Positions 1 to 46,439 of a stretch of 64,000 nt of DNA are shown piece after piece. The translations under genes and the position numbers were made by a program. Origin of the DNA: Psilocybe cubensis (Eukaryota). Under the pieces are notes generated by a model, which did not search any database, was not told where the DNA came from, and saw only the letters and a program-made list of their open reading frames with translations. The stretch covers positions 62,001-126,000 of the forward strand of contig CM038998.1 in NCBI GenBank assembly GCA_017499595.2. The letters are read 5' to 3'. The number at the start of each line of letters is the position of its first letter. Positions within the stretch are counted from its first letter, which is position 1.

Positions 1-59
1 CAGAACGCATGAAAAATACCGCAAGTTGACGTACTTACCAACTCTCCTTTAATATCTTC

Positions 60-630
60 TAACAGGTCACCTCGCGGGAAGTCGATACATTGCGTCCGAG
101 CATTCAGACTATGGAATAAAGGTCAGAATGTGCCCAAAGCACTTACCATATTTTGATATACAAGTTGGGTAGATGGCAGTTTGCGGGAAATTGATACATT
201 GCGTCGGAGCTATAAAATAGCAGATGGACCGCTCGCGGGAAGTCGATACGTTGCGCCAGAGTATTCAGACTATAAAGTAAACGTCAGAAAGTGACCAGAG
301 CACTCAAAGTCAACTTACTTACCACTCAATGTACAAGTTGGGTAAGTCGGCAGCTCGCGGGAAGTCGATACGTTGCGTCGGAGTACTCAGACTATAAAGT
401 AAACATCAGAAAGTGACCAGAGCACTCAAAGTCAATGTACTTGCCATATCTCGATGTACAAGTCGAGTAGATGGGCAACTCCCGGGAAATCAATACGTCG
501 TGTTGGAGTATTCAGTCTTTAAAAGACCCGATGGACCGCTCGCGGGAAGTCGATACATTGCCTCTGAGCATTCTGGGCTGAAAAAAAAGGTCAGAACAAC
601 TCCCTAACCCTGCAAAGTGATGTGCTTACC
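60..630 (-). repeat. Degenerate tandem repeat (core CTCGCGGGAAGTCGATACRTTGCG, ~6 copies) with minus-strand intron signals; second copy at ~13260-13830
   Basis: Core at ~71, 181, 232, 354, 480 and 540. On the minus strand GTAAGT...CTGAC...TAG introns lie between repeats (e.g. 270-322). The exon examined has stops in all three frames. Confidence 0.75.
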
Positions 631-3324
631 AACAAGTCACCCTCAATACGACACCAGCTGTCCACACAAATGCAAAAGTCAGTACAGTGATCAACACCAG
701 ATGTAAACTACATACCTTTCAGTCACCAAGCCTCTTTGCTCAATGTTCACCGGCCGTCCAAATCTCAAATCGAACCCTGAAATGCATGGTCAGTACCGTG
801 GAACTCTGATGACAACTGAAAAACTTACCCATGGTGGTGGTTCATAGTCAAAGTGTGATGCGACGGCAGTGTCCATGTTTGGCATGGCCAAACAACGGAT
901 AGCGGTGGTGGAACATTCGCCCAGCATCAGGGCATAATGCACGGCTGGAATTCAGCAAATGTACTCCCTCTTTATACATTTTTTTGCCAAGGGGTGTCGA
1001 AAGAACTGCGTTGAAATGGAGACATTGCACAAAAACTACGCAAAATACAATGACGTGGCACTTGAGTTCAGACAATTTGAACATCTACGAGGCGCCGACT
1101 GTACTGAAACCCTAAACTCTCTCACATTTCGAGCGGTGCTTGCTAGTTAATCTGACGCTTGCTAGGTTGATATCTACCGCAAGTGCGAGGGAGTACGATA
1201 AGAGATTGGGAAAAAGGCAAATGAGCTGATGCAAAAGATGGTGGGGGTAGAGGTGTAAGAGAGCGACGAACCGGTAGGAGCTGGTTCGACGTATTTGAAG
1301 GGTAATATCTCACACTCGTGTGCTTGATGCTCGCATTTCCGGTAGAATGCTAAAGTCTTGCAACAGGAGGAAAGTAACCTCTTCTTTCGTCGTGTGGCTG
1401 CTTTACCCTGTGTCCAGACTCGTTGTGGGTGGCCGTGGCGGTCTGGTGGAAAGGTAAGAGCTGACGTTGCGTTGTTGCCGAGTATAGATATGTGATTTCT
1501 GATTAAAGTGTTATTTGCGTTGTATGCAAAGATGTGCATTCTCGGTGCTTAACTGATGTTCATAGTCAATGTAAAGTTGAATATCGCACACCGGGCACAG
1601 TGAATCCCAAAGTCATACAGACAGTCCAGGTAACAATTCCACTTCCAATCAGGGGCTACTTTACATTGAAATAGACGTACACTAGGTAAAAGTGTTATTT
1701 GAATGAAGTGGGCATTCCAATCATGACTCCGCACAACGGTACGCGATGAGAACAAAATTTCCGACATACCAACCATTAATCCGGGCACAATCAGCAGTCC
1801 TGCACCACAACCAACGTACTCAGAAGCTCCAAAATCCAGGAAAGACACGGAAACGACGCAGAATGGCTCGCCACGTACGTCGAATCCTCCAAATGCAATG
1901 GGGCCGATGTCGTTTTCCCTCACTTCTTCTGACCTTGTAGGTCGTGTAACGGCACTGTAGCCGATCCGAGCAGGTCTCTGCTAGTGCCCGAGAAGACCCG
2001 TAACGAAAGGAAAAGTTGGAAACAGGCTGGAATTGCAAATTAGGGGAGGGAGAGGATGTGGACATGTACGTGAGTTGGAAATTTTGAAAAATTTGTTGTG
2101 ATTGTTCACGGTACGAGTACCGAATGTTGTACTGCGTAGTCCAACTGTACAGGGGAGTCTGCGAAATGAGTTTAACGTTCAGGTATTTCTTCATTTTTGT
2201 TTGATTTCGTTGAGACTATATTCGGGCGCTTATCAGTTTTTGACACCTTCAACTTTGCTCAGCCGCACTCAACTTTAATGAGGCACCGATTCAGGTACAT
2301 TACATACTTTTTTGCGCCTTTAAAACTCTAATAGTCCTATAGAACTACAGAGACAATGAAAATATGTGATGTACCCGAGTTCACATCTCAGCGTGAACAT
2401 GTCCAATTTTCAACCATTATTTCTGCACCACGCACCGCCAAGTCTTCAAACGGACATCACAGCACCCAATTGTGTACACCGATGCCCTTCAAATGGCCAA
2501 AATGCATCAAACAGCCGCGGTACATACACCACGTCGTTCTTACGAGCCTGTGCTGTATGACATTGAAAACTTCTTGCAGCCGGCTTCTGGGTTCTGTAGC
2601 ACCAAATCAAAGTTATCTTTGGTATCCGAGTAGTCTATAATAAGATATTTAGTGAATGGAAACGTTTGAAACATTGTAAATCAATGAATCAGGGGAGGAG
2701 GAAATCGGCATTGGTTTGAATATTATGTGAGTTCAATTGTGTTGGGATCAGTTCTGAAGATCAAAACAATATTATTACACTCTCGTAGGCTTATCTATCT
2801 GGTAGGTACACTGTCCAATAACGCAATGTGGAGAGCCAGGCTTCCGGGATGTATACTACGTTTAAATGTACTTAATCTGATTTCATTCAATTTGATTTTC
2901 GTAATGACAAATGCATTGACTAATATTATCTACCGTATACACTCTGTATTGATATCTACAGCTACTGAACCTCTAATGGAGGTCCAAACGTCTTGAATTT
3001 GCATGCCACGTCATTGTATTTTGTATAGTCGTCTCGCAGTTTTACCCCAAAATGAAGCTCTAGTGGCTCTGCATGGGCTTAAAATTGTTTACATTGAGGC
3101 CGGTTGCTTGTGCATTTATCTCAAAATCATGCCTATCGCAAGCTCTGTCTTGCACCTATCCATTCTGCATCTTACTCAATCCGCCGTGAAGTTGCCTGCC
3201 CACGTATTTATAGCTTATGTTCAATGTTTAAATGGTGTTAGACATGATATCATCAAACATAGCAATCTACCAACTACACCAGAACACTGTACTGTGACAT
3301 CCAAATACATTAGTACATACACTC

Positions 3325-3490
3325 CAACCCTAACCAGCTAAATATTTACTTGTAATTACCAACCCTAACCGGCCTAATCTGTGCTTTTGTGGTATATCGA
3401 GTCCCAACCAACCCTAATGCTAAACCCTAAACCATCCTAATATGTATTTTTGTGGTCACCACCAACCCTAAACTATAAACCCTAACCAAC
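3325..3490 (+). repeat. Degenerate telomere-like AACCCTAA(A) cluster; second copy at 16525-16690
   Basis: About six dispersed AACCCTAA/AAACCCTAA motifs within 165 bp. Confidence 0.6.
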
Positions 3491-4539
3491 GCTAATATGT
3501 GTTTTGTGATGTAGGTGAGCTCGAGCTGTTGAATAGCGCGCAGTCACTTACCACGTCGTTCTCAGCCACCCGACATTCTCCAAAGGTGAGTCGACACGCC
3601 CAGCGACCTCACCCTATTGTTCTAAACAACCCGCTATAGGTACAGACGCGAACGTAGTTTAGAACCGCGCCGAGGGTATAGGTGAGCATATTTTCCAACT
3701 TGAACCACTTACTGACGCGTGTTGTAGCCTCCTACACATGCGCCGGCTGATGATGGGTCACAACTTGTTGTGGACGGACGGATAAGTAAGCTTAGACTTT
3801 GGCATGGTGAGCAGAGACATACCACATCTCTCTATAACCACCCTGCCATTCTGTGTACGAGTTCTCCTGCTTGCTGACATGCCTAAGCACCGCACAGGTG
3901 AGCCCAAGCTGCTTCATAGCGTTAGGGTTTAAACCGCTGCGCTGAGCTCAAAGAAATTGGTCGAGATGATCTGTAATTCAATGAATTAGCTTGTTTCCAT
4001 TGAGAATTTCATTATACGTACCTTTCTAACGCGATGGGAATAGTATACCATGTAGCAGAATGAAGTGGGTACTCTGACCAGAATTTCACGGTATGAGGAA
4101 CTTAGTTATCATTGCATGAGCTGCCCAATTTTAACTCGAAACAAAACATCGAAATCAACATGAAATGAACAAACTCTGTGCTCAACAAAACATGAAAACA
4201 TATCTATTCAAGATCTACAGACAGACAGGAGTGTAAGATACAGAAGCACGGTGTACATACACTCGGCTAACGCTCGGTTTGCGCTCAAATTGTCTGTTGA
4301 TCCCAAAATTGGACCCTGAAAACAGCACGGTACAACCAAAAAATGGATAGCGTAGTGGGTGTATGTACAGCGGGACCGTGAATCGACTCACTTTTTCTCA
4401 TCTCGCTCCTCCTCCTCTGCCCAGCTCAGAGGGTCTCTCCCCTCTCTCCTCTGCTCTCCAATTTTTTCCTCTTCGCTCCGCGTCCTCTGGCAACCAACAT
4501 CATCATGTGAGCTGGGGGTTTGCCGCAGCGACTGACGAC

Positions 4540-5960
4540 TTTTTTTTGTTTGAATGCCAGGTCATCACCTGTGAAGACCCAAGGTAAGCAAACCAACACA
4601 GACACGTCCAGCGACTCACCTTGACACCCACACAGACCCCTCGACACGACGATGACTTCACCCAAATGCGCCGTGTCGCCGTCGTTGGTGAGTCCTAGTC
4701 ATAAGAAGTGCACACTCACCTCATCCTCACGTGTCTCTTCCAGTCAGCGGCATCTGTGTTGTCTGACACCCATTGGAGGTAAGTAATCGTGCACAGACGT
4801 GTCCAGCTACTCACATTGACAATCCCACGTTGACACATGCAAGCCTCTTTGAAACACACAAGACCCTTCACACGACACCTTGACTATTACCAACCGCGCT
4901 CGTTGGTGAAGATGCGCTGGGGCGCTGTTATTGGTGAGTCCAAGTCACAGTAAACCAAACATGCTGACTGACTCACCTCATCCGACGTGTCTGTTCCTCC
5001 CAGGGTCTTCTTGAATGCCAGGTCATTGTGTTGTATGAGGCCTAGAGGTGAGTAGTCCACGACAGTCGTATCCAACGCACACAAAACCCCTCGAAACAAT
5101 GACCTCGACTATCACTGACCCGTGTTCGCTGTTGAAGATGCACTTCGACGGTGTCATTGGTGAGTGCCAGTCACAATCAAACGGACACGCTCACTGACTC
5201 ACCTCATTCCAACGTGTTTCTTCAAGCCAGTCGTCATATTACTGAACCACAACACCCTTGACGTCTCCACCAGCCAGTCGCTATCGTCTGTTTTTTCAGC
5301 AGGTGAATCTTGAAAATGGTGAGTAGTCATATATCTCTGTCTACATTGGTACTCACAGCTTGCCTAGTTCCATTTCACTCAATGACATCCTCGGGACCCT
5401 CCACACTCATACCCTGTTGTGCTCATCGTCCATACTCCGTGTCATCGTCGAAAACCTGTCGGGGGTAGTCCGAAGCGAGTAGGGAGGGGGGGGGGGGAGG
5501 CGCAATCTTGTGGTGGACAAGGGGAAGCGGGGTTGAGCAGGATTGGATGGTGGGCTCAGGAACAGACACATCGCGATGAGGTGAGTTAGTGAGCGTGTTC
5601 CGTTTACTGTGACTTGGACTCACCATTAACAGCACCATGGCGCATCTTCGCCAGCAAACGTAGGTCAGCGTTGGCCAAGGTTGTCGTTTGAAGAGTCTTG
5701 TGTGCGTCGAAGGGCTTGGATGTGTCAACACGGGATCTGTGTGTTCAGGTAAGTAAATAGACGTGTCTGTGCTAGACTACTCACCTCTCAGCACATTTTG
5801 CCAGCGAACACGGGTCGGTAATAGTCTAGGTTGTCTTATCGAGGGGTCTTGTGTGTGTTGAGGGGCTTTTATGTGTTGACGTGGCGTTTGTGTGTCAAGG
5901 TGAGCAACAAGACATGTCTGTGCTGGACTACTAACCTCTAGGTGTCAGACAACACGTTTG
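4540..5960. repeat. Imperfect inverted-repeat array of ~250-bp units rich in GTRAGT and ACTCAC splice motifs; second copy at ~17740-19160
   Basis: The reverse complement of 5560-5790 aligns with 4775-5000 (e.g. GGTGAGTCCAAGTCACAGTAAAC vs GTTTACTGTGACTTGGACTCACC). Related direct units occur at 4550-4740 and 5010-5230. Confidence 0.8.
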
Positions 5961-6536
5961 TGTGGGCCTGTGAAGGGTGGGAACGTGGTGGTGCTGGGTG
6001 CGAGCGATGGAAGAGGGAAGAGAGTGTGTGGTCGTGGTTTATGTGGTTCCATGAGAGAACGGTGAAGAGAAAATTAGATCACTCACTGGACATTTGAACC
6101 CATCATCCCCTCCCCAACTGATCCTGCTTCGCTATCCACCAAGCAACCCACACATCTTAAGTGTTTCAAGCTTCTTTTGCCTTCTGTTTGAATTGTTGTA
6201 TTCAAGGTAGAGTTGGGTTGAGATGGCTAAAGGGGAAGTGTGATGTTGGGGAACAGATTTGCTGTATTATTTGTGAACCCTGAAGCGCACGATTGACACG
6301 AGAGGTTCGGAGTTTGAATGTCCTTGACAACAGCAAGGACAAACAACGCGACTCTTGGGCAGCGAGTATTGGCGGCGGCAGCGGCAGCGACTGCGGCTGC
6401 ATGGAGGTGGCGGCGGCAGCAGCGGCCCGGGGGTAGCGGCGCAATGATGCAAAGCGGCGAGCAAAGACGTCGGGCAGGTAGCAAGGGCATGCGTCGGGAC
6501 GGCGAGCGCAGGCGTCGGGGGCAGTGAGACAGGCGG

Positions 6537-6769
6537 GAGGCCGGCCTCCAGTGGCTGGCGCGTACGAGTGGAGGCCGGCCTCCACTCACACGTACGACGC
6601 GCGTACAAATCGAGGCCGGCCTCAGGTGGCCTCGACACATTTATTTTTAGACAGAGGCCGGCCTCCAGTGCCTGTCAAAGTTATTTTTAGACGGAGGCCG
6701 GCCTCCAGTGACCTCCATCAATTTGGAGGCCGGCCTCCAGTGGCCTCCATCAATTTGGAGGCCGGCCTC
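6537..6769. repeat. Array of seven GAGGCCGGCCTC palindromes (probable transposon subterminal repeats)
   Basis: Copies at 6537, 6571, 6612, 6654, 6694, 6726 and 6758. One extends to a perfect 22-bp palindrome at 6566-6587. Confidence 0.9.
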
Positions 6770-9700
6770 GGTAAAATACACATTTAATTATGTAGCACCT
6801 CCGTATGTACAAAATAAAATATTTTGAAAGTGGATTTGGGGGTTTTTGGGGTCCAGAAATCCGAATCTGCCATCAGATTTTAGGAATTCTGAACAGGAGG
6901 CCCAATGCAACGAAGGCCCCCCCTTTGGGGGGGAATAAGCTTAGGGAAGTGACCTTTTCCTCCGTCGTCGTTGACTGCTTCTCCCTGCGCCGCGAGTCGT
7001 CAGTGCTTCAGCACCCATGGTTTGTCGTGGGCAAAGTAAGAGGTGACGCCATGTTTGTTCTTGTTGTGCAAGAAGTGGATGAGCGGATGCAAACACAGCG
7101 GCGTTGGTTCCTACACTCTACACTCATTGCGTCCATATCAGAACACATGTAGGAGAAGCGGGAAAACATACCAATTATCATATATATTTTGACGAAACTC
7201 GCCTTGATGTTCCCCGGACTGTGTGAATTTGGGCCATCAAGACAGTCAGAAAGTGGTAGTAATGCTGTGCGAGACAGAAAGTATGGTTAGTTATGACTTT
7301 GAGATGGATGTCAGCTGAGGGATAATCAGAACCGAGACACTTACCAATGGTGCGTTCTCCTCATCGACTTCATTTTCCCGGTTTGCGGTGCGATGGTGGT
7401 GGATCGGACTGCCCACACACCCTGATACAATTGTGAATGGTGTTGAACCGTTTTCTGCTGCCGGAGGTTGCTACCGACAGCACAATCGAGCGGGGACGGA
7501 ATTCACTGAAGAACAATGATGTACCTCAAATCTTGGATTACTGTATAAGTGCACTCCTATCCGTTTACTGCAACAGATTTAGCGGTTATTGGTGAAGCTC
7601 CAGATACGTTTAAAATCATCGAGGCAGGGTTCATTGACCGCCAACTTCGACGATCGGTCAGTGTTTCTCCTTCAACTTTCTATCTTGTCGGCATTGTCTC
7701 CTTGATGCTTCCAGATAGCAACTACTCTTCGAAACCAATTATCTCAGCGTACATTCTGTGGGAGACGGGACCTCTCTATCAGGGTTAGTACCTCAGACGA
7801 GCGGCAGATGGATCATGGAGCTGTGTGAGCCTAGCTGTAGTGCTTTCACAAAGAAAGAGTAAGCAATTGACACATACATGCATATCCTCTTCTGTTCCCT
7901 CCAATATTCATGTCTCCCAACTTCATCGTTTGACTCTGCACACCTTCCCTCTTTGTGATCCCACTTTTTCTTGCTCTGTCAATCTCCCCCGTTCATCCAA
8001 TTCCCACATAATTCACAAAGGTACCCATCATTGCATCCATCCCCCCGCACTCTCCCAAATCCAGATATGCAAATGTTAAACCTCAACTATTTCATCTAGA
8101 CGAGTGATGGAATTATGACACGATTTTCCGTTGAAAAAGCAAACATTGAGAAATAGAGTTGTACTCACTAGTTTTGGGCCTTTCTTTATGTTGTAGTGCT
8201 TACATTCTGAGTGTGCGAACAGCCTATTGGATGACATTCTGATAAAATTAGCACAGACCGTGGTAAATTTAAACTCGTGTCGTGGTAAAGCTGTGGTCAA
8301 GTCGTGGTTTCATCAAAACCAATGGTGTACGTGTTGGTATTATCCTAGGGTGGTCTCTCTAAAGATGGTCTTCCGTAAAGCAGTTATTTCAACAGATGGT
8401 TAAGGGCGCAATTCTTCCAGATAATCTGAAATTTAACTGAGTTTATATCGGCCTATCACGGCAAAGCATATTTTGTCTTGCTGTGGGTGTTTCCGGCACC
8501 TTTACTTAGATTATTTTGATGCAGAAGGAGCCGAGATAAGTTGGAAACAAAAAAATCTGAGAAAAAATGACAAAAGTTGTTTGAAAGTGAACAGGACTTG
8601 GTATAGGTTCATATAAACCGGGTATTACTGTATCATTGATAAGAAAACCATTTGATACAGCAATGTATACCTAGGTCACAGTACGACCACACCAAAGTAC
8701 GTTGTTCAACCAAGGGTGTATGTACTAATGACTAAGTCCTTCATTACAAAACCTGACATAAATGTACGTATCAAAGTTCTAGTCTTGCTATTTTTGTAGC
8801 GACCAAATCCTGAAGCCGGACACTTCGCATTTTCAACGGAAAATCGTGTCATATGGAATGGACATTCCACTGCGACTCCTCGTGAAGGTTTCGTTGCGGC
8901 GCAGATCAGATTCACCATCCCTTACTCCCCGTTCAAGCGATACACATATCACGATTATTTCAAGTCCGACGAGATCAGGTAGGCGTTTGTGTGCTCTCTG
9001 CCGAGGTCGCGGTATCTCCCGCTGCTTAGAAGCGCTTTTAATCTGTATTCATGTGTGTTGAAGCGCAGGTATCAATATGTACTTGTTATAATACTCGCTG
9101 CCTTGACAATTTGCGTTTTAAATTGTGCTCACTCTGTGCTATCACTTAGAACGAAAAATCTGGTTGCATGTCTCCTGTATTGCTCTCGAGGCAATGTCTC
9201 AACTATCTTGAGGCTAACTAAACAAACTGATTCCGGGCACGATATCGAGCGCTTGGATATCAGAATCAAGATCTACACTCTGCAAGCGGTCCAGCCTGAA
9301 AGCTACTCTGATACACGTGCCGCCTTGCAACGTTTCCATCACTTCAGCTCAATCTCGCTCTTATATTACAGTGTATTCTCGGACATGTCACATATCAGAG
9401 GGCCCTCTGCAGTGATATCAATTAAAACTCGACGAGACACACGGAGACTCGGCCCATCTCCCTCTCGTAATGCCTCTCCCAGGCGCAAACCCTGCACAAA
9501 AAACAAATTTCATTATTCGTGCTCCCCCAAAGCGATCCGAGAAAGTCAACGTAACACGTGTATATGGGTACGTGCTTTGTTTGTTGACTGCATCTCCTCA
9601 TCCCCTCTCCGCTGTCCCCTCCTCTCCCCTCCTGTCCTCTGCACTGCTACAGCGCAACAGCATCCCAAGTCGTCGCTTTCCACCCTCAATTTGATGTCGC

Positions 9701-10267
9701 GGATCAGCTCCTTGTATGGTACGCAGTGGACTGCATGACGGATGGGTGAGTCGGGCAGGGTTGCATTTGACAGTGCGCTGACGGTGTGTTTTACAGATTC
9801 GGACGGGTCGGTGAGTCTTACACGGTCTTTTCTCGAACAACTCCAACATTGAATTTGACATAGAGTAACTCCAAACACATTGACAGCCTCCCAACATCTC
9901 CAAACCTCACACGACAACGACTCATTTTCATAAACCTTCCAAAGTTCGCAACCCTCTTTTACTTGTTTTCACCCGTTCACTGGATTTACTGATCATCTCA
10001 GTGCTGTGCACAGATTTATATCGGGCCTGTCCATCAAGCACCACTTGGCTCAGACCACCACCATGTACACGTTGATTGAAAAGCGACTCAATCCGGACGG
10101 TGAAAGACAGAAATGTGAAAGCTTCAGTGGGATAACCAAAGAGATATTTGTGGTTGGAGCATGTATACAAGTTCTCCTCGCAGGTTCCGTACTGATTTCC
10201 GAGAGCACAGCGACGGGTTCTTTTGCGAGACGAGCACGCCACTACACGGGACACACCTACATGTGCA

Positions 10268-10950
10268 GAGACGAGTCAGCAATACAACTCGCTAGGCATG
10301 TACAAGTTGGGTATGGTGAGTACAGCATTAGATAGAGGCTGTCAACGACACTAACCTTGACAGGAGCCCTACACACGGATCTGCGGGGAGGGATGGAGGA
10401 CGCGTCGGCGCAGCGTGTTCAAGCTCTTCATGAGTAGCTCGCCATGAACAAGCTGGCCACGCTGGTGAGTATGTCAGTAAAAAGAGGTTTACGGGGTCAC
10501 CAACCTTGAAAAGAGACCTCAACGGAGCGGCGTTTCGAAGCAGCAAGGGCGGCGACGACTTCACTTTGGGAGGTGGGACACATGTCGAGACGAGTCGGCA
10601 AAACGTGGTTGATGCGACTTGCTAGGCATGTACGAGTTGGGTATGGTGAGTGCAACATCAGATGGAGGCTGTCAGCAAAACTAACCTTGACAAGGGCCCT
10701 CAACAATATTCAAGCGCGTCGTTGTCGAGTCAGCAAAGCGTGTTCAATTCAACAATAACCCTCAACGTCACGCGAGCGCATCGTTTTCGAGGTGGGTTGC
10801 ACACCGTTTAGTCTTGACAAGCGCATCGGAAACGCGTGTTCAACCCATTTTCTGGACGCGGATGTGTTGAGTCTGGTGAGTACACTGTCGAAAAGAGGCT
10901 GTGAAGGACACTAACACTTTGCAGGCCCGTCTACAACACGTCGTTTCGAG
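10268..10950 (+). repeat. Direct repeats of exon/intron-like modules
   Basis: GCTAGGCATGTACRAGTTGGGTATG|GTGAGT...CTAACCTTGACA at ~10291-10362 and ~10621-10692. A related TG|GTGAGTA...AAAAGAGG module occurs at ~10463 and ~10874. Confidence 0.7.
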
Positions 10951-11827
10951 GGGGATGGCATGCGGAACCGCTGATGGAGGGTCCTTCAACGTCAGGCGAG
11001 GGCGTCGTTTCGAGCTGGGATGGACGGTGGGGCGTCCGCGTCATTGTTGGTGTGTGTTGATGAGTTGGAGCGCGCGGAAGACTACATACTTGGGGGTGAG
11101 TACCACACCCACCTTCAACGTAGCAAGCTCACTGACCTTCCCAATACTTTCAGCATGCAGTCACTGACCTTGTCGTGGTATACGCATGCTGTCGCAATGC
11201 GTGAGCAACATAGTCAGCAATTCCATTCCAAATGAACGCGTTGTGAGCCGCTTACCTTGCTTGCAAGGTGGATGGTCTGCCGCTCGTAGTGGTTGCGAGA
11301 ACGCCCTGCTCGGCCTGGAAGAGGTGAGTGATAATGTGTGCACCAGCAACAAGGTACTTACCGCAATGCGTGCAATACGGCCACGTCAGTCCTAACCAAC
11401 AGAGCGCGCTGGTGAGCTGGAGGCCGAGTGCGAATGGGAGAGGGGGATGAGGAAAACTCGGTCAGTCCCTACCCTCCTTTTATAAAGTCCGTACCTCCCT
11501 GTGTTGGCATGTATATCCGCATTCGTGTCTACGTTGAATAAAAAAATAAACGTGACGCCCATGTTTGAAAGGGTAAAGACGCGAACGAGACAACCGGGCG
11601 CTAAGCGAGAGGTTGCGCAACATGTTTGGTTCGACTTTCATTCGACTTGCATCTCCCCGTTCCTGTTTGTTAGATTTCCATATCAAACTCGCGTGCTTCC
11701 CTCTCAATCATTGTCCACAAGACTGAGAACGCCGAATAATGCCTTGTCGAGTTAAAAAAAAACACAAAACACAAACCAAATCACGTAAAACGCACCTGCT
11801 CTCAACACTCTGCCTCTCCTGTCCAAC

Positions 11828-13160
11828 CTACTCCGCATGATACCCAAATTTGACGATGGAGTAGGGCTTGACAACGCGCTTGATGCTACCTTTGAGGAGC
11901 GCCTCGTACAGCTTGGGGAGGTGCATGGGGATTGTTGGGTCGGATTGGAGTTCTGTTGGTGGTGTTGTGGGAGGGGTGGTATATGGGTTTGGGTGTGTGA
12001 CGTGGTATTGGAACGTGGGGTGTGTGTGGGATGTGTGGTGTGGGTGAGAGGATGAGAGGAACGACATGAGGAGTGGGGATGGACAAAAAAGAAAAGGTCT
12101 TCAGTAAGTGTACCGCATCATAGTCATAGAAGATGGAAGAAAAAAGCGAAGCAGCACCCAACCAACAAAGTACGACAAACCGCGAGAACACAATAGCACG
12201 ATTACCTGCATCGAAGCACACACAGCATGTTCCACTGCGCATACAAGCATCCATGGGAACCATTAGTGGGTTAGGTGCATTGTGTTGCATGTTGCAATTG
12301 TGTGTTGCGCTGTGTACGTTGCATTGTGATTGTGTTTTATGCATCATTCACTGCACGCATAAACACACTGGATCTGCATGTATGATATGCTGTACGATAC
12401 GCAACGGAGCAGCCTCATGGCGAGGGGTGTGATAGGGCCAATGATGACGATGGTGAGGAGATGTTACGTGAATGCCCCCAGAAAACGAAAGAAAAGGAAG
12501 CAATACACAACAAAAAGAAAGAAGAGAAGAGACGAAACGACGGACGTACCATTGCAATACACCCTCAACACCTCGCCAAACTCCTCAGATCTCATCCCTG
12601 ATGCCCACGTGCTACGACGTGTATGGTGTTGACGAGTTTGAGCGTGAGGAGCGCGTTGACGTCTTCCGACTTTCATTTTCATGGGTGGGGTGAGCTGATA
12701 AAGACGTGAGGCGATGGAAAGAAGGGACTTACAAAGTTGAACATGACTGTTTAACATGTACTTCAACGCTGAACCAATTTATCCCTGCTCATTCTTCGTG
12801 TCCCCTCCAACCTCCTTCGCCCTAGCCTTCTCTTCTTTATCCTGAACTTTGCCACCAGCCGCGGAAGAATCTTTCATGCCCGCGGCGCTGAGATTCTTGA
12901 ATGCCTCAAAGAAGGAGGAGGAGACGGTGCTGTAGTCTTTGCCTTTGGCGTGCAGGATGCAGGATTGCATGTCGGTTTGGGATTGGAGGTAGGGTGGGCC
13001 ATAAATTGAGCTTGCGGCGGTGCTGAAGGAGGTTAGGGATACAGATATGTGCCTATGTGTGTGCGTGTGTGCGTCGGAGGGTGGATGAGGGAACGAGGGA
13101 GAAAGGCTGAGCTCTGTGAGAAGTGTCTTGATGAGCGCGAGTTGACTGTCATAGTTGGCT
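11828..13160 (-). pseudogene. RPN6: Decayed intron-containing fragment of 26S proteasome lid subunit RPN6/PSMD11
   Basis: Pieces in colinear order: LALIKTLLTEL, STAASSIYGPPYLQSQTDMQSCILHAKGKDYSTVSSSFFEAFKNL, LKYML, SEDVNALLTLKL, ELQSDPTIPMHLPKLYEALLKGSIKRVVKPYSIV. These resemble RPN6 motifs as I recall them (IYCPP..Q...D.QSGILHAE.KDY.TAYSYF.EAFE). Stops, frameshifts and deletions are present. Confidence 0.82.
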
Positions 13161-13200
13161 TTTATGTCGCGTCAGAGCCCTCTGGCTACACAAACGAGGT

Positions 13201-16200
13201 CAGAACGCATGAAAAATACCGCAAGTTGACGTACTTACCAACTCTCCTTTAATATCTTCTAACAGGTCACCTCGCGGGAAGTCGATACATTGCGTCCGAG
13301 CATTCAGACTATGGAATAAAGGTCAGAATGTGCCCAAAGCACTTACCATATTTTGATATACAAGTTGGGTAGATGGCAGTTTGCGGGAAATTGATACATT
13401 GCGTCGGAGCTATAAAATAGCAGATGGACCGCTCGCGGGAAGTCGATACGTTGCGCCAGAGTATTCAGACTATAAAGTAAACGTCAGAAAGTGACCAGAG
13501 CACTCAAAGTCAACTTACTTACCACTCAATGTACAAGTTGGGTAAGTCGGCAGCTCGCGGGAAGTCGATACGTTGCGTCGGAGTACTCAGACTATAAAGT
13601 AAACATCAGAAAGTGACCAGAGCACTCAAAGTCAATGTACTTGCCATATCTCGATGTACAAGTCGAGTAGATGGGCAACTCCCGGGAAATCAATACGTCG
13701 TGTTGGAGTATTCAGTCTTTAAAAGACCCGATGGACCGCTCGCGGGAAGTCGATACATTGCCTCTGAGCATTCTGGGCTGAAAAAAAAGGTCAGAACAAC
13801 TCCCTAACCCTGCAAAGTGATGTGCTTACCAACAAGTCACCCTCAATACGACACCAGCTGTCCACACAAATGCAAAAGTCAGTACAGTGATCAACACCAG
13901 ATGTAAACTACATACCTTTCAGTCACCAAGCCTCTTTGCTCAATGTTCACCGGCCGTCCAAATCTCAAATCGAACCCTGAAATGCATGGTCAGTACCGTG
14001 GAACTCTGATGACAACTGAAAAACTTACCCATGGTGGTGGTTCATAGTCAAAGTGTGATGCGACGGCAGTGTCCATGTTTGGCATGGCCAAACAACGGAT
14101 AGCGGTGGTGGAACATTCGCCCAGCATCAGGGCATAATGCACGGCTGGAATTCAGCAAATGTACTCCCTCTTTATACATTTTTTTGCCAAGGGGTGTCGA
14201 AAGAACTGCGTTGAAATGGAGACATTGCACAAAAACTACGCAAAATACAATGACGTGGCACTTGAGTTCAGACAATTTGAACATCTACGAGGCGCCGACT
14301 GTACTGAAACCCTAAACTCTCTCACATTTCGAGCGGTGCTTGCTAGTTAATCTGACGCTTGCTAGGTTGATATCTACCGCAAGTGCGAGGGAGTACGATA
14401 AGAGATTGGGAAAAAGGCAAATGAGCTGATGCAAAAGATGGTGGGGGTAGAGGTGTAAGAGAGCGACGAACCGGTAGGAGCTGGTTCGACGTATTTGAAG
14501 GGTAATATCTCACACTCGTGTGCTTGATGCTCGCATTTCCGGTAGAATGCTAAAGTCTTGCAACAGGAGGAAAGTAACCTCTTCTTTCGTCGTGTGGCTG
14601 CTTTACCCTGTGTCCAGACTCGTTGTGGGTGGCCGTGGCGGTCTGGTGGAAAGGTAAGAGCTGACGTTGCGTTGTTGCCGAGTATAGATATGTGATTTCT
14701 GATTAAAGTGTTATTTGCGTTGTATGCAAAGATGTGCATTCTCGGTGCTTAACTGATGTTCATAGTCAATGTAAAGTTGAATATCGCACACCGGGCACAG
14801 TGAATCCCAAAGTCATACAGACAGTCCAGGTAACAATTCCACTTCCAATCAGGGGCTACTTTACATTGAAATAGACGTACACTAGGTAAAAGTGTTATTT
14901 GAATGAAGTGGGCATTCCAATCATGACTCCGCACAACGGTACGCGATGAGAACAAAATTTCCGACATACCAACCATTAATCCGGGCACAATCAGCAGTCC
15001 TGCACCACAACCAACGTACTCAGAAGCTCCAAAATCCAGGAAAGACACGGAAACGACGCAGAATGGCTCGCCACGTACGTCGAATCCTCCAAATGCAATG
15101 GGGCCGATGTCGTTTTCCCTCACTTCTTCTGACCTTGTAGGTCGTGTAACGGCACTGTAGCCGATCCGAGCAGGTCTCTGCTAGTGCCCGAGAAGACCCG
15201 TAACGAAAGGAAAAGTTGGAAACAGGCTGGAATTGCAAATTAGGGGAGGGAGAGGATGTGGACATGTACGTGAGTTGGAAATTTTGAAAAATTTGTTGTG
15301 ATTGTTCACGGTACGAGTACCGAATGTTGTACTGCGTAGTCCAACTGTACAGGGGAGTCTGCGAAATGAGTTTAACGTTCAGGTATTTCTTCATTTTTGT
15401 TTGATTTCGTTGAGACTATATTCGGGCGCTTATCAGTTTTTGACACCTTCAACTTTGCTCAGCCGCACTCAACTTTAATGAGGCACCGATTCAGGTACAT
15501 TACATACTTTTTTGCGCCTTTAAAACTCTAATAGTCCTATAGAACTACAGAGACAATGAAAATATGTGATGTACCCGAGTTCACATCTCAGCGTGAACAT
15601 GTCCAATTTTCAACCATTATTTCTGCACCACGCACCGCCAAGTCTTCAAACGGACATCACAGCACCCAATTGTGTACACCGATGCCCTTCAAATGGCCAA
15701 AATGCATCAAACAGCCGCGGTACATACACCACGTCGTTCTTACGAGCCTGTGCTGTATGACATTGAAAACTTCTTGCAGCCGGCTTCTGGGTTCTGTAGC
15801 ACCAAATCAAAGTTATCTTTGGTATCCGAGTAGTCTATAATAAGATATTTAGTGAATGGAAACGTTTGAAACATTGTAAATCAATGAATCAGGGGAGGAG
15901 GAAATCGGCATTGGTTTGAATATTATGTGAGTTCAATTGTGTTGGGATCAGTTCTGAAGATCAAAACAATATTATTACACTCTCGTAGGCTTATCTATCT
16001 GGTAGGTACACTGTCCAATAACGCAATGTGGAGAGCCAGGCTTCCGGGATGTATACTACGTTTAAATGTACTTAATCTGATTTCATTCAATTTGATTTTC
16101 GTAATGACAAATGCATTGACTAATATTATCTACCGTATACACTCTGTATTGATATCTACAGCTACTGAACCTCTAATGGAGGTCCAAACGTCTTGAATTT

Positions 16201-19200
16201 GCATGCCACGTCATTGTATTTTGTATAGTCGTCTCGCAGTTTTACCCCAAAATGAAGCTCTAGTGGCTCTGCATGGGCTTAAAATTGTTTACATTGAGGC
16301 CGGTTGCTTGTGCATTTATCTCAAAATCATGCCTATCGCAAGCTCTGTCTTGCACCTATCCATTCTGCATCTTACTCAATCCGCCGTGAAGTTGCCTGCC
16401 CACGTATTTATAGCTTATGTTCAATGTTTAAATGGTGTTAGACATGATATCATCAAACATAGCAATCTACCAACTACACCAGAACACTGTACTGTGACAT
16501 CCAAATACATTAGTACATACACTCCAACCCTAACCAGCTAAATATTTACTTGTAATTACCAACCCTAACCGGCCTAATCTGTGCTTTTGTGGTATATCGA
16601 GTCCCAACCAACCCTAATGCTAAACCCTAAACCATCCTAATATGTATTTTTGTGGTCACCACCAACCCTAAACTATAAACCCTAACCAACGCTAATATGT
16701 GTTTTGTGATGTAGGTGAGCTCGAGCTGTTGAATAGCGCGCAGTCACTTACCACGTCGTTCTCAGCCACCCGACATTCTCCAAAGGTGAGTCGACACGCC
16801 CAGCGACCTCACCCTATTGTTCTAAACAACCCGCTATAGGTACAGACGCGAACGTAGTTTAGAACCGCGCCGAGGGTATAGGTGAGCATATTTTCCAACT
16901 TGAACCACTTACTGACGCGTGTTGTAGCCTCCTACACATGCGCCGGCTGATGATGGGTCACAACTTGTTGTGGACGGACGGATAAGTAAGCTTAGACTTT
17001 GGCATGGTGAGCAGAGACATACCACATCTCTCTATAACCACCCTGCCATTCTGTGTACGAGTTCTCCTGCTTGCTGACATGCCTAAGCACCGCACAGGTG
17101 AGCCCAAGCTGCTTCATAGCGTTAGGGTTTAAACCGCTGCGCTGAGCTCAAAGAAATTGGTCGAGATGATCTGTAATTCAATGAATTAGCTTGTTTCCAT
17201 TGAGAATTTCATTATACGTACCTTTCTAACGCGATGGGAATAGTATACCATGTAGCAGAATGAAGTGGGTACTCTGACCAGAATTTCACGGTATGAGGAA
17301 CTTAGTTATCATTGCATGAGCTGCCCAATTTTAACTCGAAACAAAACATCGAAATCAACATGAAATGAACAAACTCTGTGCTCAACAAAACATGAAAACA
17401 TATCTATTCAAGATCTACAGACAGACAGGAGTGTAAGATACAGAAGCACGGTGTACATACACTCGGCTAACGCTCGGTTTGCGCTCAAATTGTCTGTTGA
17501 TCCCAAAATTGGACCCTGAAAACAGCACGGTACAACCAAAAAATGGATAGCGTAGTGGGTGTATGTACAGCGGGACCGTGAATCGACTCACTTTTTCTCA
17601 TCTCGCTCCTCCTCCTCTGCCCAGCTCAGAGGGTCTCTCCCCTCTCTCCTCTGCTCTCCAATTTTTTCCTCTTCGCTCCGCGTCCTCTGGCAACCAACAT
17701 CATCATGTGAGCTGGGGGTTTGCCGCAGCGACTGACGACTTTTTTTTGTTTGAATGCCAGGTCATCACCTGTGAAGACCCAAGGTAAGCAAACCAACACA
17801 GACACGTCCAGCGACTCACCTTGACACCCACACAGACCCCTCGACACGACGATGACTTCACCCAAATGCGCCGTGTCGCCGTCGTTGGTGAGTCCTAGTC
17901 ATAAGAAGTGCACACTCACCTCATCCTCACGTGTCTCTTCCAGTCAGCGGCATCTGTGTTGTCTGACACCCATTGGAGGTAAGTAATCGTGCACAGACGT
18001 GTCCAGCTACTCACATTGACAATCCCACGTTGACACATGCAAGCCTCTTTGAAACACACAAGACCCTTCACACGACACCTTGACTATTACCAACCGCGCT
18101 CGTTGGTGAAGATGCGCTGGGGCGCTGTTATTGGTGAGTCCAAGTCACAGTAAACCAAACATGCTGACTGACTCACCTCATCCGACGTGTCTGTTCCTCC
18201 CAGGGTCTTCTTGAATGCCAGGTCATTGTGTTGTATGAGGCCTAGAGGTGAGTAGTCCACGACAGTCGTATCCAACGCACACAAAACCCCTCGAAACAAT
18301 GACCTCGACTATCACTGACCCGTGTTCGCTGTTGAAGATGCACTTCGACGGTGTCATTGGTGAGTGCCAGTCACAATCAAACGGACACGCTCACTGACTC
18401 ACCTCATTCCAACGTGTTTCTTCAAGCCAGTCGTCATATTACTGAACCACAACACCCTTGACGTCTCCACCAGCCAGTCGCTATCGTCTGTTTTTTCAGC
18501 AGGTGAATCTTGAAAATGGTGAGTAGTCATATATCTCTGTCTACATTGGTACTCACAGCTTGCCTAGTTCCATTTCACTCAATGACATCCTCGGGACCCT
18601 CCACACTCATACCCTGTTGTGCTCATCGTCCATACTCCGTGTCATCGTCGAAAACCTGTCGGGGGTAGTCCGAAGCGAGTAGGGAGGGGGGGGGGGGGAG
18701 GCGCAATCTTGTGGTGGACAAGGGGAAGCGGGGTTGAGCAGGATTGGATGGTGGGCTCAGGAACAGACACATCGCGATGAGGTGAGTTAGTGAGCGTGTT
18801 CCGTTTACTGTGACTTGGACTCACCATTAACAGCACCATGGCGCATCTTCGCCAGCAAACGTAGGTCAGCGTTGGCCAAGGTTGTCGTTTGAAGAGTCTT
18901 GTGTGCGTCGAAGGGCTTGGATGTGTCAACACGGGATCTGTGTGTTCAGGTAAGTAAATAGACGTGTCTGTGCTAGACTACTCACCTCTCAGCACATTTT
19001 GCCAGCGAACACGGGTCGGTAATAGTCTAGGTTGTCTTATCGAGGGGTCTTGTGTGTGTTGAGGGGCTTTTATGTGTTGACGTGGCGTTTGTGTGTCAAG
19101 GTGAGCAACAAGACATGTCTGTGCTGGACTACTAACCTCTAGGTGTCAGACAACACGTTTGTGTGGGCCTGTGAAGGGTGGGAACGTGGTGGTGCTGGGT

Positions 19201-20150
19201 GCGAGCGATGGAAGAGGGAAGAGAGTGTGTGGTCGTGGTTTATGTGGTTCCATGAGAGAACGGTGAAGAGAAAATTAGATCACTCACTGGACATTTGAAC
19301 CCATCATCCCCTCCCCAACTGATCCTGCTTCGCTATCCACCAAGCAACCCACACATCTTAAGTGTTTCAAGCTTCTTTTGCCTTCTGTTTGAATTGTTGT
19401 ATTCAAGGTAGAGTTGGGTTGAGATGGCTAAAGGGGAAGTGTGATGTTGGGGAACAGATTTGCTGTATTATTTGTGAACCCTGAAGCGCACGATTGACAC
19501 GAGAGGTTCGGAGTTTGAATGTCCTTGACAACAGCAAGGACAAACAACGCGACTCTTGGGCAGCGAGTATTGGCGGCGGCAGCGGCAGCGACTGCGGCTG
19601 CATGGAGGTGGCGGCGGCAGCAGCGGCCCGGGGGTAGCGGCGCAATGATGCAAAGCGGCGAGCAAAGACGTCGGGCAGGTAGCAAGGGCATGCGTCGGGA
19701 CGGCGAGCGCAGGCGTCGGGGGCAGTGAGACAGGCGGGAGGCCGGCCTCCAGTGGCTGGCGCGTACGAGTGGAGGCCGGCCTCCACTCACACGTACGACG
19801 CGCGTACAAATCGAGGCCGGCCTCAGGTGGCCTCGACACATTTATTTTTAGACAGAGGCCGGCCTCCAGTGCCTGTCAAAGTTATTTTTAGACGGAGGCC
19901 GGCCTCCAGTGACCTCCATCAATTTGGAGGCCGGCCTCCAGTGGCCTCCATCAATTTGGAGGCCGGCCTCGGTAAAATACACATTTAATTATGTAGCACC
20001 TCCGTATGTACAAAATAAAATATTTTGAAAGTGGATTTGGGGGTTTTTGGGGTCCAGAAATCCGAATCTGCCATCAGATTTTAGGAATTCTGAACAGGAG
20101 GCCCAATGCAACCAAGGCCCCCCCTTTGGGGGGGAATAAGCTTAGGAAGT
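13201..20150. repeat. Copy 2 of the long direct repeat
   Basis: Identity to 1-6950 ends at ...GGGGGAATAAGCTTAGG(G)AAGT, after which the two copies diverge. Confidence 0.97.
19738..19970. repeat. Second copy of the GAGGCCGGCCTC palindrome array
   Basis: Matches 6537-6769 at +13201. Confidence 0.9.
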
Positions 20151-20262: not shown

Positions 20263-20787
20263 ACATTTTTGATGGACCGGATCATGAACTGTCCAATTAA
20301 GATTCACAACAATCAATCAATTGATTATTAGGTAAGGACCCAGGTAAGCTATTTATACTCTAGACATGTGAATATTCCCATGTCGCGGTTACTCGGAGCC
20401 ACGTAACCAAAGTACTCTATATCCATGTGATTCACATCAGAGTCAATAACCCACGATGTCAAAGAACAAAAGTGTTGGATCCACTTTTGACAGGTTACCA
20501 TGTGCCACATTGACCCGTGACACTCTGTACATCAGAGACCTGTCTAACTTGACAATAAACATTGACAGATTTGTGATAGTCGGTAAGATACATGACAGCT
20601 GCGCAGCATTACTTCACGCGCTGTCATCGGATGTCTAGAACATTCCTTCTAAGAATAGCCACTGAAGAGTCTATAAAGACGAAAGGGCTGGTTGTTGGGA
20701 TCCCCCAACAGCCCTCTGGCTTCTTTCCATTTAACTCACAGTTTAAACAAGTCGCTCGCACCTCGCTTCGCTCGGTGCTCGCTCCCA

Positions 20788-20835
20788 CCCTAAACCCTAA
20801 ACCCTAAACCCTAAACCCTAAACCCTAAACCCTAA
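20788..20835 (+). repeat. Interstitial telomere-like tract (CCCTAAA)6 plus CCCTAA
   Basis: Perfect 7-mer repeats; TTTAGGG on the minus strand. Confidence 0.92.
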
Positions 20836-20968
20836 CGCGCTGTCATCGGATGTTCCAGAACATTCCTTCTAAGAATAGCCACTGAAGAGTCTATAAAGAC
20901 GAAAGGGCTGGCTGCTGATAACAATCAACAGCCCTCTGGCTTCTTTCATTTTAACTCACCAGTTTAAA

Positions 20969-21004
20969 CTAGTCGCTCGCACCTCGCTTCGCTCGGTGCT
21001 CGCT
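20969..21004 (-). mobile_element. Helitron-like 3' terminus (hairpin followed by CTAG|T); variant CTTG|T copy at 20748-20783
   Basis: Minus strand reads GCACC-GAGCGAAGCGA-GGTGC (hairpin), then GAGCGA, CTAG, T. The other unit ends CTTG, T. A subterminal hairpin plus CTRR before T is the established Helitron 3' signature. Confidence 0.62.
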
Positions 21005-21008
21005 CCCC

Positions 21009-21050
21009 CCCTAAACCCTAAACCCTAAACCCTAAACCCTAAACCCTAAA
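21009..21050 (+). repeat. Interstitial telomere-like tract (CCCTAAA)6
   Basis: Perfect 7-mer repeats. Confidence 0.92.
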
Positions 21051-24000: not shown

Positions 24001-24714
24001 GATTTTGAGATGGGGAGAAAGGATACGTAGGAATATTGTCATAACATCCACCGCTCTCACTTACCTTTAAATGTTACGGACCAGCCAGCGCAATAAGATG
24101 TAATTGTTTACTCGCTAATTCTGACACCGTCCCACCCGTAGAAAGCACCCATAACACACCATTCGTGCAATAAAACCGCCACCTTAAATGGAAAAGTTAA
24201 CAACCCCGCTCAGTAAAGCATAGATATACCTGTACATCAAATGTCAAGCAAACGTTACAAGTACAGGTATATTATCGTGAGCATCCCAACACAGGTTGCT
24301 AAATACGGTAATGTATTTATGGTTGTAACCGGTGCAGCGAGCAAACTACTTGAATGGCGACAAGGAAGCCTTCTCTCTGATCACCTCTTTGTGTAGACCT
24401 GAACGGGCAATACCTTTACTCTCCTGTCCAGCCTTTCCAAAATTCCAGAAACAAGCACCTTAGATAATTCGATGACTTCAACAGGTAGAGTTTTAACTGA
24501 GCACGCTGAAGGAATTTCGCACTTCTTACAGACTCCTCCTTTGCAGGCCATTCTGAAGTCAAACGCCTTTTAACCGTACCCGGCATACATGTCAATATAG
24601 GTAATGAACCCAGTTACACATTGATTAAAGTCACGTATACTGGTGGAATTAGCGACGATTCCAACTGCGAATTTTTTATTCAAAGAATTTATGTTTTGAG
24701 CATAGCCGAATCGC

Positions 24715-37410: not shown

Positions 37411-37509
37411 GGCGCTATAGCTAAGTGGTTAAAGCGACAGATTAGAATTGTAACAAGTTCTACAATCTGTTCCTCTTTGAGGGCGCAGGTTCAAATCCTG
37501 CTGGCGTCG
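37411..37509 (+). tRNA. tRNA-Ser: tRNA-Ser(AGA) with a 17-nt intron (37448-37464)
   Basis: Acceptor stem GGCGCTA/TGGCGTC, D-arm TAGCTAAGTGGTTAAAGC, anticodon stem ACAGA/TCTGT with AGA at 37444-37446, long variable arm CCTCTTTGAGG, T-arm GCAGGTTCAAATCCTGC, and a downstream T-run terminator. Confidence 0.95.
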
Positions 37510-45815: not shown

Positions 45816-46439
45816 CATCGACACGCTCATCGTGCCGCTCAGCGCGCGCCTCCTCGCGCGATCAGCGCGCGCTTGACGCGCGATCGGCGCGCGTTGAGCG
45901 ACACGCCCAGCGATTTTACGGCTATTTTGGCGTCTCGGTGATAAGCGACACACCTCACCAACGCTACTTAGGCGCTTGTGTATTCAGCGACGAGAACACG
46001 CTCTTCATTCAATAACGCTGTATCAGTGACGCATGTTTATTCAGCGAGAAAAAACGTATTTTCGAGTGAAATATATGTATTTTTGGGGCTCGGGTGTGTC
46101 CTACTACCATACACATAAATTGACAAATGCTACACAGTCAAAGCTGCTTTTCTCCCTTCTTATTTCTAGAACCTGAGTCTCTATTTCACTGTAGTAGCAA
46201 TGTATATACTCACATCAATGTATTTTATTCGTTTGCCATCGTTTGCCATTGCCTTCTATGAATTGATGTCTCTCAGAACAACTTTCTCGCAGTCTCTTAT
46301 CACTCACCACACTCCCACTCACTCACCACACTCACTCACACTCACTCACCACACTCACCACACTCGCTCTCACTCGCTCAAACACATTCATTCATCGTCC
46401 TCGCTCATCACGCCCTCTATCAACATCGATATTCGTACC

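Follow-up and report, generated by a model that had tools for sequence, protein, structure and literature searches.

Results

A window of 64,000 nucleotides of the Psilocybe cubensis genome (assembly GCA_017499595.2, contig CM038998.1, positions 62,001–126,000 of the forward strand) carries near its start, at 4580–5940, an array of short intron-like modules arranged in two inverted arms, whose splice-like signals can be read on either strand. All positions given here are those of the window. The features of the locus are as follows, with the strand stated where one applies.

4372–4506, plus strand: CT-rich (pyrimidine-rich) stretch 5' of the array (sequence reading)
4507–4560, plus strand: intron-like GTGAGC...ACTGAC...CAG of the non-palindromic type (sequence reading, motif scan)
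4550–5240: left arm, made of roughly three tandem units that have diverged, with A and B modules (repeat finding, blastn, nhmmer)
4584–4635, plus strand: A module, AGGTAAGC...ACTCACCT...CAG; a minus-strand GTGAGT at 4619 has only GCTTAC as partner
4688–4743, plus strand: B module, GGTGAGT...ACTCACC, pyrimidine tract, CAG; predicted hairpin of -10.5 kcal/mol
4779–4814: A module without a downstream YAG on the plus strand; minus reading 4814 to 4763
4934–5003, plus strand: B module; predicted hairpin of -18.9 kcal/mol, z -4.55; minus reading 4976 to 4925
5042–5075: half A module with a partnerless GTGAGT at 5048, remnant of an internal deletion
5160–5230, plus strand: B module; predicted hairpin of -13.6 kcal/mol; minus reading 5202 to 5129
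5241–5557: spacer of 317 nt with the C module and a G12 run at 5486–5497 (sequence reading, repeat finding)
5319–5367, plus strand: C module, a single copy inside the spacer (motif scan, alignment)
5558–5955: right arm, with B, A and A units inverted relative to the left arm (repeat finding, blastn, nhmmer)
5581–5632, plus strand: B module; predicted hairpin of -18.8 kcal/mol, z -3.38
5749–5791, plus strand: A module of 43 nt, GTAAGT...ACTCAC CTCTCAG (motif scan, alignment)
5900–5941, plus strand: A module of 42 nt, GTGAGC...ACTAAC CTCTAG; the minus reading offers GTTAGT only
17750–19156: second, near-identical copy of the locus, belonging to a duplication of 1–6950 at 13201–20150

Splice-like motif pairs and module families

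The original prediction had listed nine pairs of a donor and an ACT[CA]AC motif, and a scan of both strands recovered every one of them, with GT[AG]AG[TC] followed 26–37 nt 3' by ACT[CA]AC at 4584/4614, 4688/4714, 4779/4809, 4934/4971, 5160/5197, 5319/5351, 5581/5618, 5749/5779 and 5900/5930 (the right member of the last being ACTAAC). The pair enrichment for which it had proposed a shuffle test is likewise borne out, as the pattern GT[AG]AG[TC]-N18-34-ACT[CA]AC matches 10 times in 4580–5940, whereas 2000 dinucleotide-preserving shuffles gave 0.033 matches on average and never more than 1. On the plus strand all nine modules have a GT donor of consensus type and all nine an ACT[CA]AC; 8/9 modules there combine donor, ACTNAC and a YAG further 3' (the exception, at 4779, lacks the YAG), as do 5/9 on the minus strand. 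Both strands do carry splice-like signals, as proposed, and the example on which the proposal leaned can be traced letter by letter: the plus reading 4934–5003 ends in CAG, while the minus reading has GTGAGT at 4976, ACTCAC at 4939 and a CAG ending at 4925.

The dual role that had been assigned to ACTCAC, as a branch-like motif and as the reverse complement of the donor, holds, and the modules were found to end in terminal inverted repeats of 7–9 nt, the left half reading (AG)GTRAGT and the right half ACTYAC(CT). The complement of GTRAGT in turn differs by a single base from the fungal branch consensus, ACTAAC. As the right half of each module is the complement of the donor and also lies near the branch consensus, the order of donor and branch can therefore be read on either strand, and the two-way appearance of the array arises because the module ends are symmetrical and a chance YAG is common within a few tens of bases. 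An argument for plus-strand polarity, drawn from the occurrence of GTAAGT 5' and ACTCAC 3' in both arms, was dropped, since two independent substitutions suffice to produce it.

The nine pairs are not, however, independent occurrences, for they represent three module families multiplied by duplication. Alignments sort the modules into type A (four copies and a half copy; ~42–52 nt, AGGTRAGY..GACRYGTC..ACTYACCT), type B (four copies; ~52–70 nt, GGTGAGT-N24-31-ACTCACC, followed on the plus strand of the left arm by a pyrimidine tract and CAG) and type C (one copy). Outside the array, a module at 3585 is A-like at an expect value (E) of 0.048.

Judged against 17 introns of one gene, the modules of the array are atypical for introns of this host. 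With its 17 introns spliced out, the ISWI gene at 37822–42202 encodes a protein that shares 99.8% identity with ISW2 of Psilocybe cubensis; its donors are GTACGT (5), GTGCGT (3), GTGTGT (2), GTATGT (2) and others, with GTGAGT once and GTAAGT never. GTRAGT is present in 1/17 of these introns, ACTNAC in 0/17 and CTRAY in 12/17, a motif from which the ACTCAC of the array departs, and the fraction of T is 0.41 in the ISWI introns versus 0.25 in the array modules. A transfer RNA gene, probably intron-containing (37411–37509, plus strand; Rfam, 52.8 bits, 99 nt), lies just 5' of the ISWI gene.

Repeat architecture and duplication history

Repeat finding at the locus returned 9 direct families and 18 inverted pairs, with a tandem unit length of ~150–460 nt. 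The units of the left arm are 70–78% alike and share an exact repeat of 16 nt (TTGAATGCCAGGTCAT, at 4550 and 5011), and the two A units of the right arm are 73–77% alike at a spacing of 151 nt. The inverted arms (4582–5223 against 5558–5955) are 72–84% complementary in pieces of 52–130 nt and align by blastn at 77% over 231 nt; overall, units and arms are 62–84% alike by repeat finding and blastn. Tandem Repeats Finder reported in the array just a 19-nt period at 5841–5895, the larger units being too diverged for this tool. The inverted repeat that had been placed around the G-run near 5490 is real, although the G12 run sits within the spacer and not at the centre of symmetry; the length of this run differs by one in sequencing run X6, one of three (X6–X8) represented by contigs whose kind is unrecorded and which behave like DNA of related strains.

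The locus recurs at 17600–19201 with 99.94% identity over 1602 nt (blastn), and it does so because the whole of 1–6950 is duplicated at 13201–20150. This direct duplication spans at least 6951 bp at 99.957% identity and a spacing of 13,200 bp; it begins at the edge of the window and may extend further, and its right end is the end of a high-copy repeat (~6946–6950). It could represent either a recent segmental duplication or an artefact of assembly. Given that arms and units are 62–84% alike, as compared to 99.94–99.96% for the copies of the block, the duplications within the locus are therefore old and that of the block recent.

Predicted folding, base composition and copy number

The plus-strand RNA of 4550–5960 has a predicted folding energy of -603.4 kcal/mol versus -468.6 ± 9.5 for 25 shuffles (z -14.2), with 266 of its 485 predicted pairs joining the two arms, and the minus strand is predicted to fold at -640.1 kcal/mol (z -15.0). 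Removal in silico of the eight complete plus-strand modules leaves a 976-nt RNA for which z is -5.0 (30 shuffles), 184 of 346 pairs remaining between the arms. At the level of single modules, the B modules, which carry the symmetry further, are predicted to form hairpins in which GGTGAGT pairs with ACTCACC (energies between -10.5 and -18.9 kcal/mol, z between -1.7 and -4.6), and for two of the four none of 200 shuffles was as stable; modules of types A (z -0.8 to +0.8) and C are not distinguished from their shuffles.

In the arms the observed to expected ratio of CpG is ~0.8 and that of TpG+CpA is 1.4–1.5, versus ~1.0 and 1.07–1.12 in genes, and the best alignment of the arms contains 31 transitions versus 13 transversions. 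This mild depletion of CpG, excess of TpG+CpA and surplus of transitions would be compatible with methylated repeat DNA.

Over 4449–4645 and 4830–5065 the short X6 contigs reach word depths of 414 and 294, at a divergence of ~4% from the window, and an 838-nt X6 contig over 5122–5960 has a word depth of 50.5 and differs by ~0.6%; these depths hint weakly at membership of the left arm in a multi-copy family. A contig of 947 nt from X8 matches only through its first 577 letters, at 4620–5196, and the strain behind it may have the left arm without the right arm; neither this match nor that reading of it was counted as evidence. Among 14 listed sequencing runs, no carrier of the stretch is on record as RNA, and the contigs of X6–X8 and of X13, a run guessed to be RNA, show no junction within 4580–5940 when aligned over 3000–7500; X13 does not cover the array and X8 does not cover 5265–6170, blanks that count neither for nor against transcription. 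In other strains, loose contig ends carry a 25-nt insertion at 4372/4373 containing TATAAAAG, at the start of the CT-rich stretch, which could serve as the leader of a plus-strand transcript, should there be one.

Coding capacity and RNA families

The original prediction saw no credible open reading frame (ORF) here, and we concur. No ORF of at least 200 aa overlaps the region, and a permissive splice-graph search of both strands gave spliced ORFs of at best 123 aa (plus) and 131 aa (minus), both without internal repeat or conserved frame. Single segments of the array are open in one frame on sequence reading; homologous units are nonetheless read in differing frames, and stops are reached within one or two segments. 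A Pfam search with 84 (8 + 76) stop-to-stop ORFs of at least 60 aa in 1–13300 returned no match, and the ORF at 5426–5776 (minus strand) had no relative in a protein search. At the gathering level Rfam reports nothing at the locus, the one match in the window being the transfer RNA gene mentioned above, and in 4000–6500 the sole sub-threshold match is to SNORD105 (21 bits versus 45, E 0.33). The idea of a host for small nucleolar RNAs was set aside, as no C/D boxes were seen on sequence reading.

The surrounding block

Over its first ~21 kb the window is unlike the remainder: this part is gene-poor and devoid of any Pfam domain that we could find. GGTRAGT occurs 35 times in 1–13200 and 11 times in 22001–64000; a microsatellite-like GTGAGT/GTGA run at 46300–46360 (minus strand) is the source of 4 of the 11 matches outside the block. 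Of strict pairs (GTRAGY-N15-40-RCTYAC) there are 15 in 1–13200 and 12 in the duplicate, but none in 20151–64000, and the pairing is therefore a property of the block and not of the ordinary genes of this genome. Of these 15, five are found elsewhere in the block than in the array (3515, 3682, 11096, 11324 and 12690), and that at 12690 is a real intron relic of a pseudogene of RPN6/PSMD11.

This pseudogene, at 13170–11717 on the minus strand, covers residues ~150–372 of a 430-aa relative and contains in-frame stops and insertions; the 130-aa ORF at 12782–13171 (minus strand) has 175 relatives at E ≤0.001, full-length RPN6-like proteins among them. An origin of the arrays from RPN6 was considered and rejected, as tblastn with the RPN6-like protein P0126 matches just 13141–11795. 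The predicted protein P0124 (UniRef A0A8H7Y9H8_PSICU) maps with 100% identity onto 13977–12782 (minus strand), and two annotated P. cubensis proteins (A0A8H7Y9H8 and XP_047743267.1, the latter named 26S proteasome non-ATPase regulatory subunit 11-like) fuse the last exon of the RPN6 pseudogene to neighbouring array exons by way of implied introns of ~324 and 503 nt; these fused gene models look like an ab initio chimera.

Two further arrays share the block. That at 23–631 (copy at 13223–13831; minus strand) is a tandem series of exon-like and T-rich intron-like segments of the form GTAAGT...CTGAC...TAG, the exons of which share an open frame with a repeated QRIDFPRA..LPNLYIE and a Kozak-like CCACCATGG start at 831; its ORF breaks after 52 codons once the evident introns are removed. 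The other, at 10282–11025 (plus strand) with further modules to ~11400, consists of four 57-nt copies of TGGTGAGT..AGAGGCTGT..ACTAACCTTGACAG with repeated flanking segments, and is one-way because its ACTAAC yields GTTAGT alone on the opposite strand. Similarity between this array and that at 4580–5940 is marginal (best E 0.057).

Degenerate, telomere-like CCCTAA(A) repeats are present at ~3320–3490, and clean (CCCTAAA)n at 20788–20836 and 21009–21050, all in the C-rich orientation; the latter stretches belong to two units of ~216 nt (20616–21050), 93% alike, each ending in (CCCTAAA)5-6. The unit is a heptamer and not the usual fungal hexamer, and the repeats suggest, from their letters, telomere-associated DNA. 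At ~6620–6946 there is a very high-copy repeat, with a summed contig word depth of up to 7300 in X6 versus ~50–160 nearby. The stretch ~6300–6946 is GC-rich, with (GGC)n at 6371–6426 and a palindrome, GGAGGCCGGCCTCC, recurring at a spacing of ~30–50 nt.

Discussion

The locus is a non-coding sequence with a layered history of duplication, a recurrent set of splice-like motifs and the potential to fold into a hairpin. We infer that it is most probably a relic of duplicated intron-bearing non-coding or pseudogenic sequence, with no dedicated function of its own, as opposed to a dedicated gene. More specifically, we give about an even chance to its being a decaying, duplicated, intron-like non-coding repeat, the two-way look of which is a by-product of palindromic consensus ends. 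Under this account, an ancestral segment would have held short intron-like modules of two related types, A and B, and would have been copied in tandem, to give about three units on the left and, on the right, two A units; a set of units would then have been inverted, the 317-nt spacer being left between, and much later the whole 6.95-kb neighbourhood would have been duplicated 13.2 kb away. Any read-through transcript, in either direction, would be predicted to form an imperfect double-stranded RNA (dsRNA) hairpin of ~400 bp.

The incompleteness of the splice-like sets on both strands is counted in favour of the decaying repeat, as are the lack of coding capacity and of an Rfam family, the age of the internal duplications, the setting among repeats and a pseudogene, the base composition of the arms and the contrast between modules and ISWI introns. 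The original prediction had itself named as damaging a pair frequency explained by the expansion of one ancestral unit, and the frequency does prove to be largely a matter of expansion, mainly of two or three ancestral modules; the five pairs outside the array are not covered by the expansion of a single unit, however, and this is one of three observations that weigh against a mere decaying repeat. Another concerns the B modules, in which the donor and anti-donor hexamers are invariant in 12/12 alignment columns versus 34/65 of the other ungapped columns (Fisher p = 0.001, an approximate value as the copies are related), and this suggests constraint on the motifs or on the hairpin stem that they form; the corresponding hexamers of the A modules, invariant in 8/12 versus 31/76 columns, display only a weak trend (p = 0.09, approximate for the same reason). 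Last, the plus-strand modules are complete in 8/9 cases across both arms despite the inversion of one arm relative to the other, as would be expected of a single plus-strand spliced transcript.

It is possible, though in our estimation doubtful, that the locus is, in line with the original prediction, a transcribed one, on one or both strands, from which the modules would be spliced out while the arms form a hairpin dsRNA to be processed by Dicer into small interfering RNAs (siRNAs). Such putative siRNAs could act in silencing a multi-copy family of which the left arm may be a member, or could aid a subtelomere-like heterochromatin, and by analogy with the stalled-spliceosome route of Cryptococcus the sequestration of donors in the B hairpins could slow splicing. 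The predicted folding of both strands (z -14.2 and -15.0), which remains at z -5.0 after removal of the modules, argues for this reading, as do the pairing of GGTGAGT with ACTCACC in B hairpins whose hexamers are invariant and the completeness of plus-strand modules in both arms; the left-arm word depths of 294–414 versus 50.5 in X6 give a weak hint of paralogues that might serve as targets, and a link between stalled spliceosomes and siRNA is in print for Cryptococcus (PMC6643885, in the portion drawn on here). Against this stand the donors, which are of consensus and not suboptimal type, and the arms, which at 62–84% complementarity offer few perfect duplexes of 21–24 nt; furthermore, the pairs are mostly copies of three modules, and these modules are unlike the ISWI introns. 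The stronger form of the proposal holds that the modules are true orientation-independent introns, that the spliced hairpin RNA feeds RNA interference (RNAi) against a multi-copy subtelomere-like family, and that the invariance of the B ends reflects selection for two-way splicing or for stems that stall the spliceosome; we regard it as improbable. That the modules are mobile, internally symmetrical introns, or introner-type elements resembling miniature inverted-repeat transposable elements, able to work in either orientation, appears to us quite unlikely. Their terminal inverted repeats do coincide with the splice-donor consensus and its complement, the B modules form predicted hairpins, unrelated module types share their ends across the block (3515, 3682, 11096, 11324 and the array), and precedents have been described in the Hypoxylaceae (PMC8469720) and, as introners with terminal inverted repeats, elsewhere in eukaryotes (PMC9860276), as far as the consulted parts of these reports go. 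Yet the flanks of the modules have been duplicated along with them, from which it follows that the copies derive from segmental duplication and not from insertion. No dispersed copies with unrelated flanks were met in the genes of the window, no module interrupts an ORF, the 43.8 kb of the window that hold real genes contain no pair, no target-site duplications were seen, and a metagenome scan for the B pattern gave no match.

A real or recently decayed protein gene, built of tandem short exons with an inverted partial copy, would account for the open frame of single segments in the array, and it has a local parallel in the array at 23–631, the units of which have an open, repeated frame and lie within annotated models P0124 and P0123, so that tandem duplication of exon and intron together evidently occurs in this block. 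We nevertheless hold this explanation to be very unlikely. A protein-coding gene with repeated exons is recognized by a frame conserved across its units or by relatives in the databases, and here the frames shift between units, the spliced ORFs reach just 123 and 131 aa, and the searches described above returned neither a Pfam domain nor, for the ORF at 5426–5776, a relative; even the array at 23–631 breaks after 52 codons. Foldback elements have long terminal inverted repeats made of subrepeats, with matching termini and a target-site duplication, and an old transposon of this type, its long terminal inverted repeats of tandem subrepeats enclosing a spacer, would resemble the locus in its arms of tandem subrepeats, unequal in number and inverted around 317 nt. 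Its outermost ends (~4550 and ~5955) do not match, however, the arms are only 62–84% alike, no target-site duplication was identified, and the Pfam scan of ORFs in 1–13300 found no transposase nearby; as such, this is the explanation to which we give the least credence.

The systems that the locus most nearly resembles can be set beside it. Loci of hairpin RNA (hpRNA) and endogenous siRNA include the hpRNA genes of Drosophila, the pseudogene inverted repeats of mouse oocytes and the inverted-repeat loci of plants. The locus shares with them a long imperfect inverted repeat, partly of tandem units, that is non-coding and predicted to give a dsRNA of several hundred bp, and differs from them in that its arms are more diverged (62–84%) and are known here from sequence alone. 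To our knowledge, hpRNA loci have not been described as studded with intron-like modules, unlike the arms described here. Blocks of subtelomeric duplication are characterized by pseudogenes and tandem arrays, and the present block is akin to them in being gene-poor, with telomere-like repeats, a pseudogene of a housekeeping gene, a recent large duplication and high-copy repeats.

Among published fungal examples, the internally symmetrical proliferating introns and stwintrons of the Hypoxylaceae have terminal inverted repeats of 45–55 nt, are located, without a seam, at novel sites within expressed protein genes, and their excision has been shown by RNA data (PMC8469720, in the parts consulted). 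Like them, the modules are short, of fungal origin and similar to their own reverse complement, and hairpins are predicted for both; unlike them, the modules have a symmetry of 7–18 nt, share flanks between copies, interrupt no ORF, and come from a basidiomycete as opposed to an ascomycete. Introners with terminal inverted repeats are dispersed in genes among unrelated flanks and, according to the sections of the report used here, have been reported among fungi just in the Pezizomycotina; the search by which they were found also admitted matches between opposite ends, which insertion in opposite orientation would lead one to expect (PMC9860276). The modules share with introners the coincidence of terminal inverted repeats and splice signals, and differ in being local segmental duplicates within a non-coding block. 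In Cryptococcus neoformans, stalled spliceosomes (SCANR) trigger siRNA production from transposon mRNAs with suboptimal introns (PMC6643885, citing Dumesic 2013, in the part consulted). The likeness of the present locus to that system lies in its basidiomycete host and in intron-bearing, repeat-derived transcripts, here putative, as possible substrates of RNAi; the locus differs in its consensus donors and in having no transposon ORF. The literature that we searched, main texts as opposed to supplements, described neither this locus nor two-way introns in Psilocybe, which is no proof that no such account exists.

Even if the locus is a relic, it demonstrates how the fungal splice consensus can by itself give a sequence the appearance of being spliceable from either strand. 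The consensus sequences of the 5' splice site and of the branch are near reverse complements, and this calls for caution in ab initio annotation. Two P. cubensis gene models already stitch array exons onto the RPN6 pseudogene. Should the locus be transcribed, it would represent a natural hairpin-RNA locus that bears introns, found in an Agaricomycete, and would permit a direct test of the splicing of palindromic-ended introns in either orientation and of the coupling of splicing to RNAi by donor-sequestering stems outside Cryptococcus.

Other features of the window

Beyond the block, fragments of an endonuclease/exonuclease/phosphatase domain of the type found in non-long-terminal-repeat retrotransposons occur in two shifted frames at 47631–48795 (plus strand), adjoined on the opposite strand by a mitochondrial-carrier ORF (48642–49211, minus strand). 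An open frame of 409 aa at 24706–25932 (plus strand) is made up of ankyrin repeats that recur regularly with a period of ~66 aa (Ank_2, E 6e-75).

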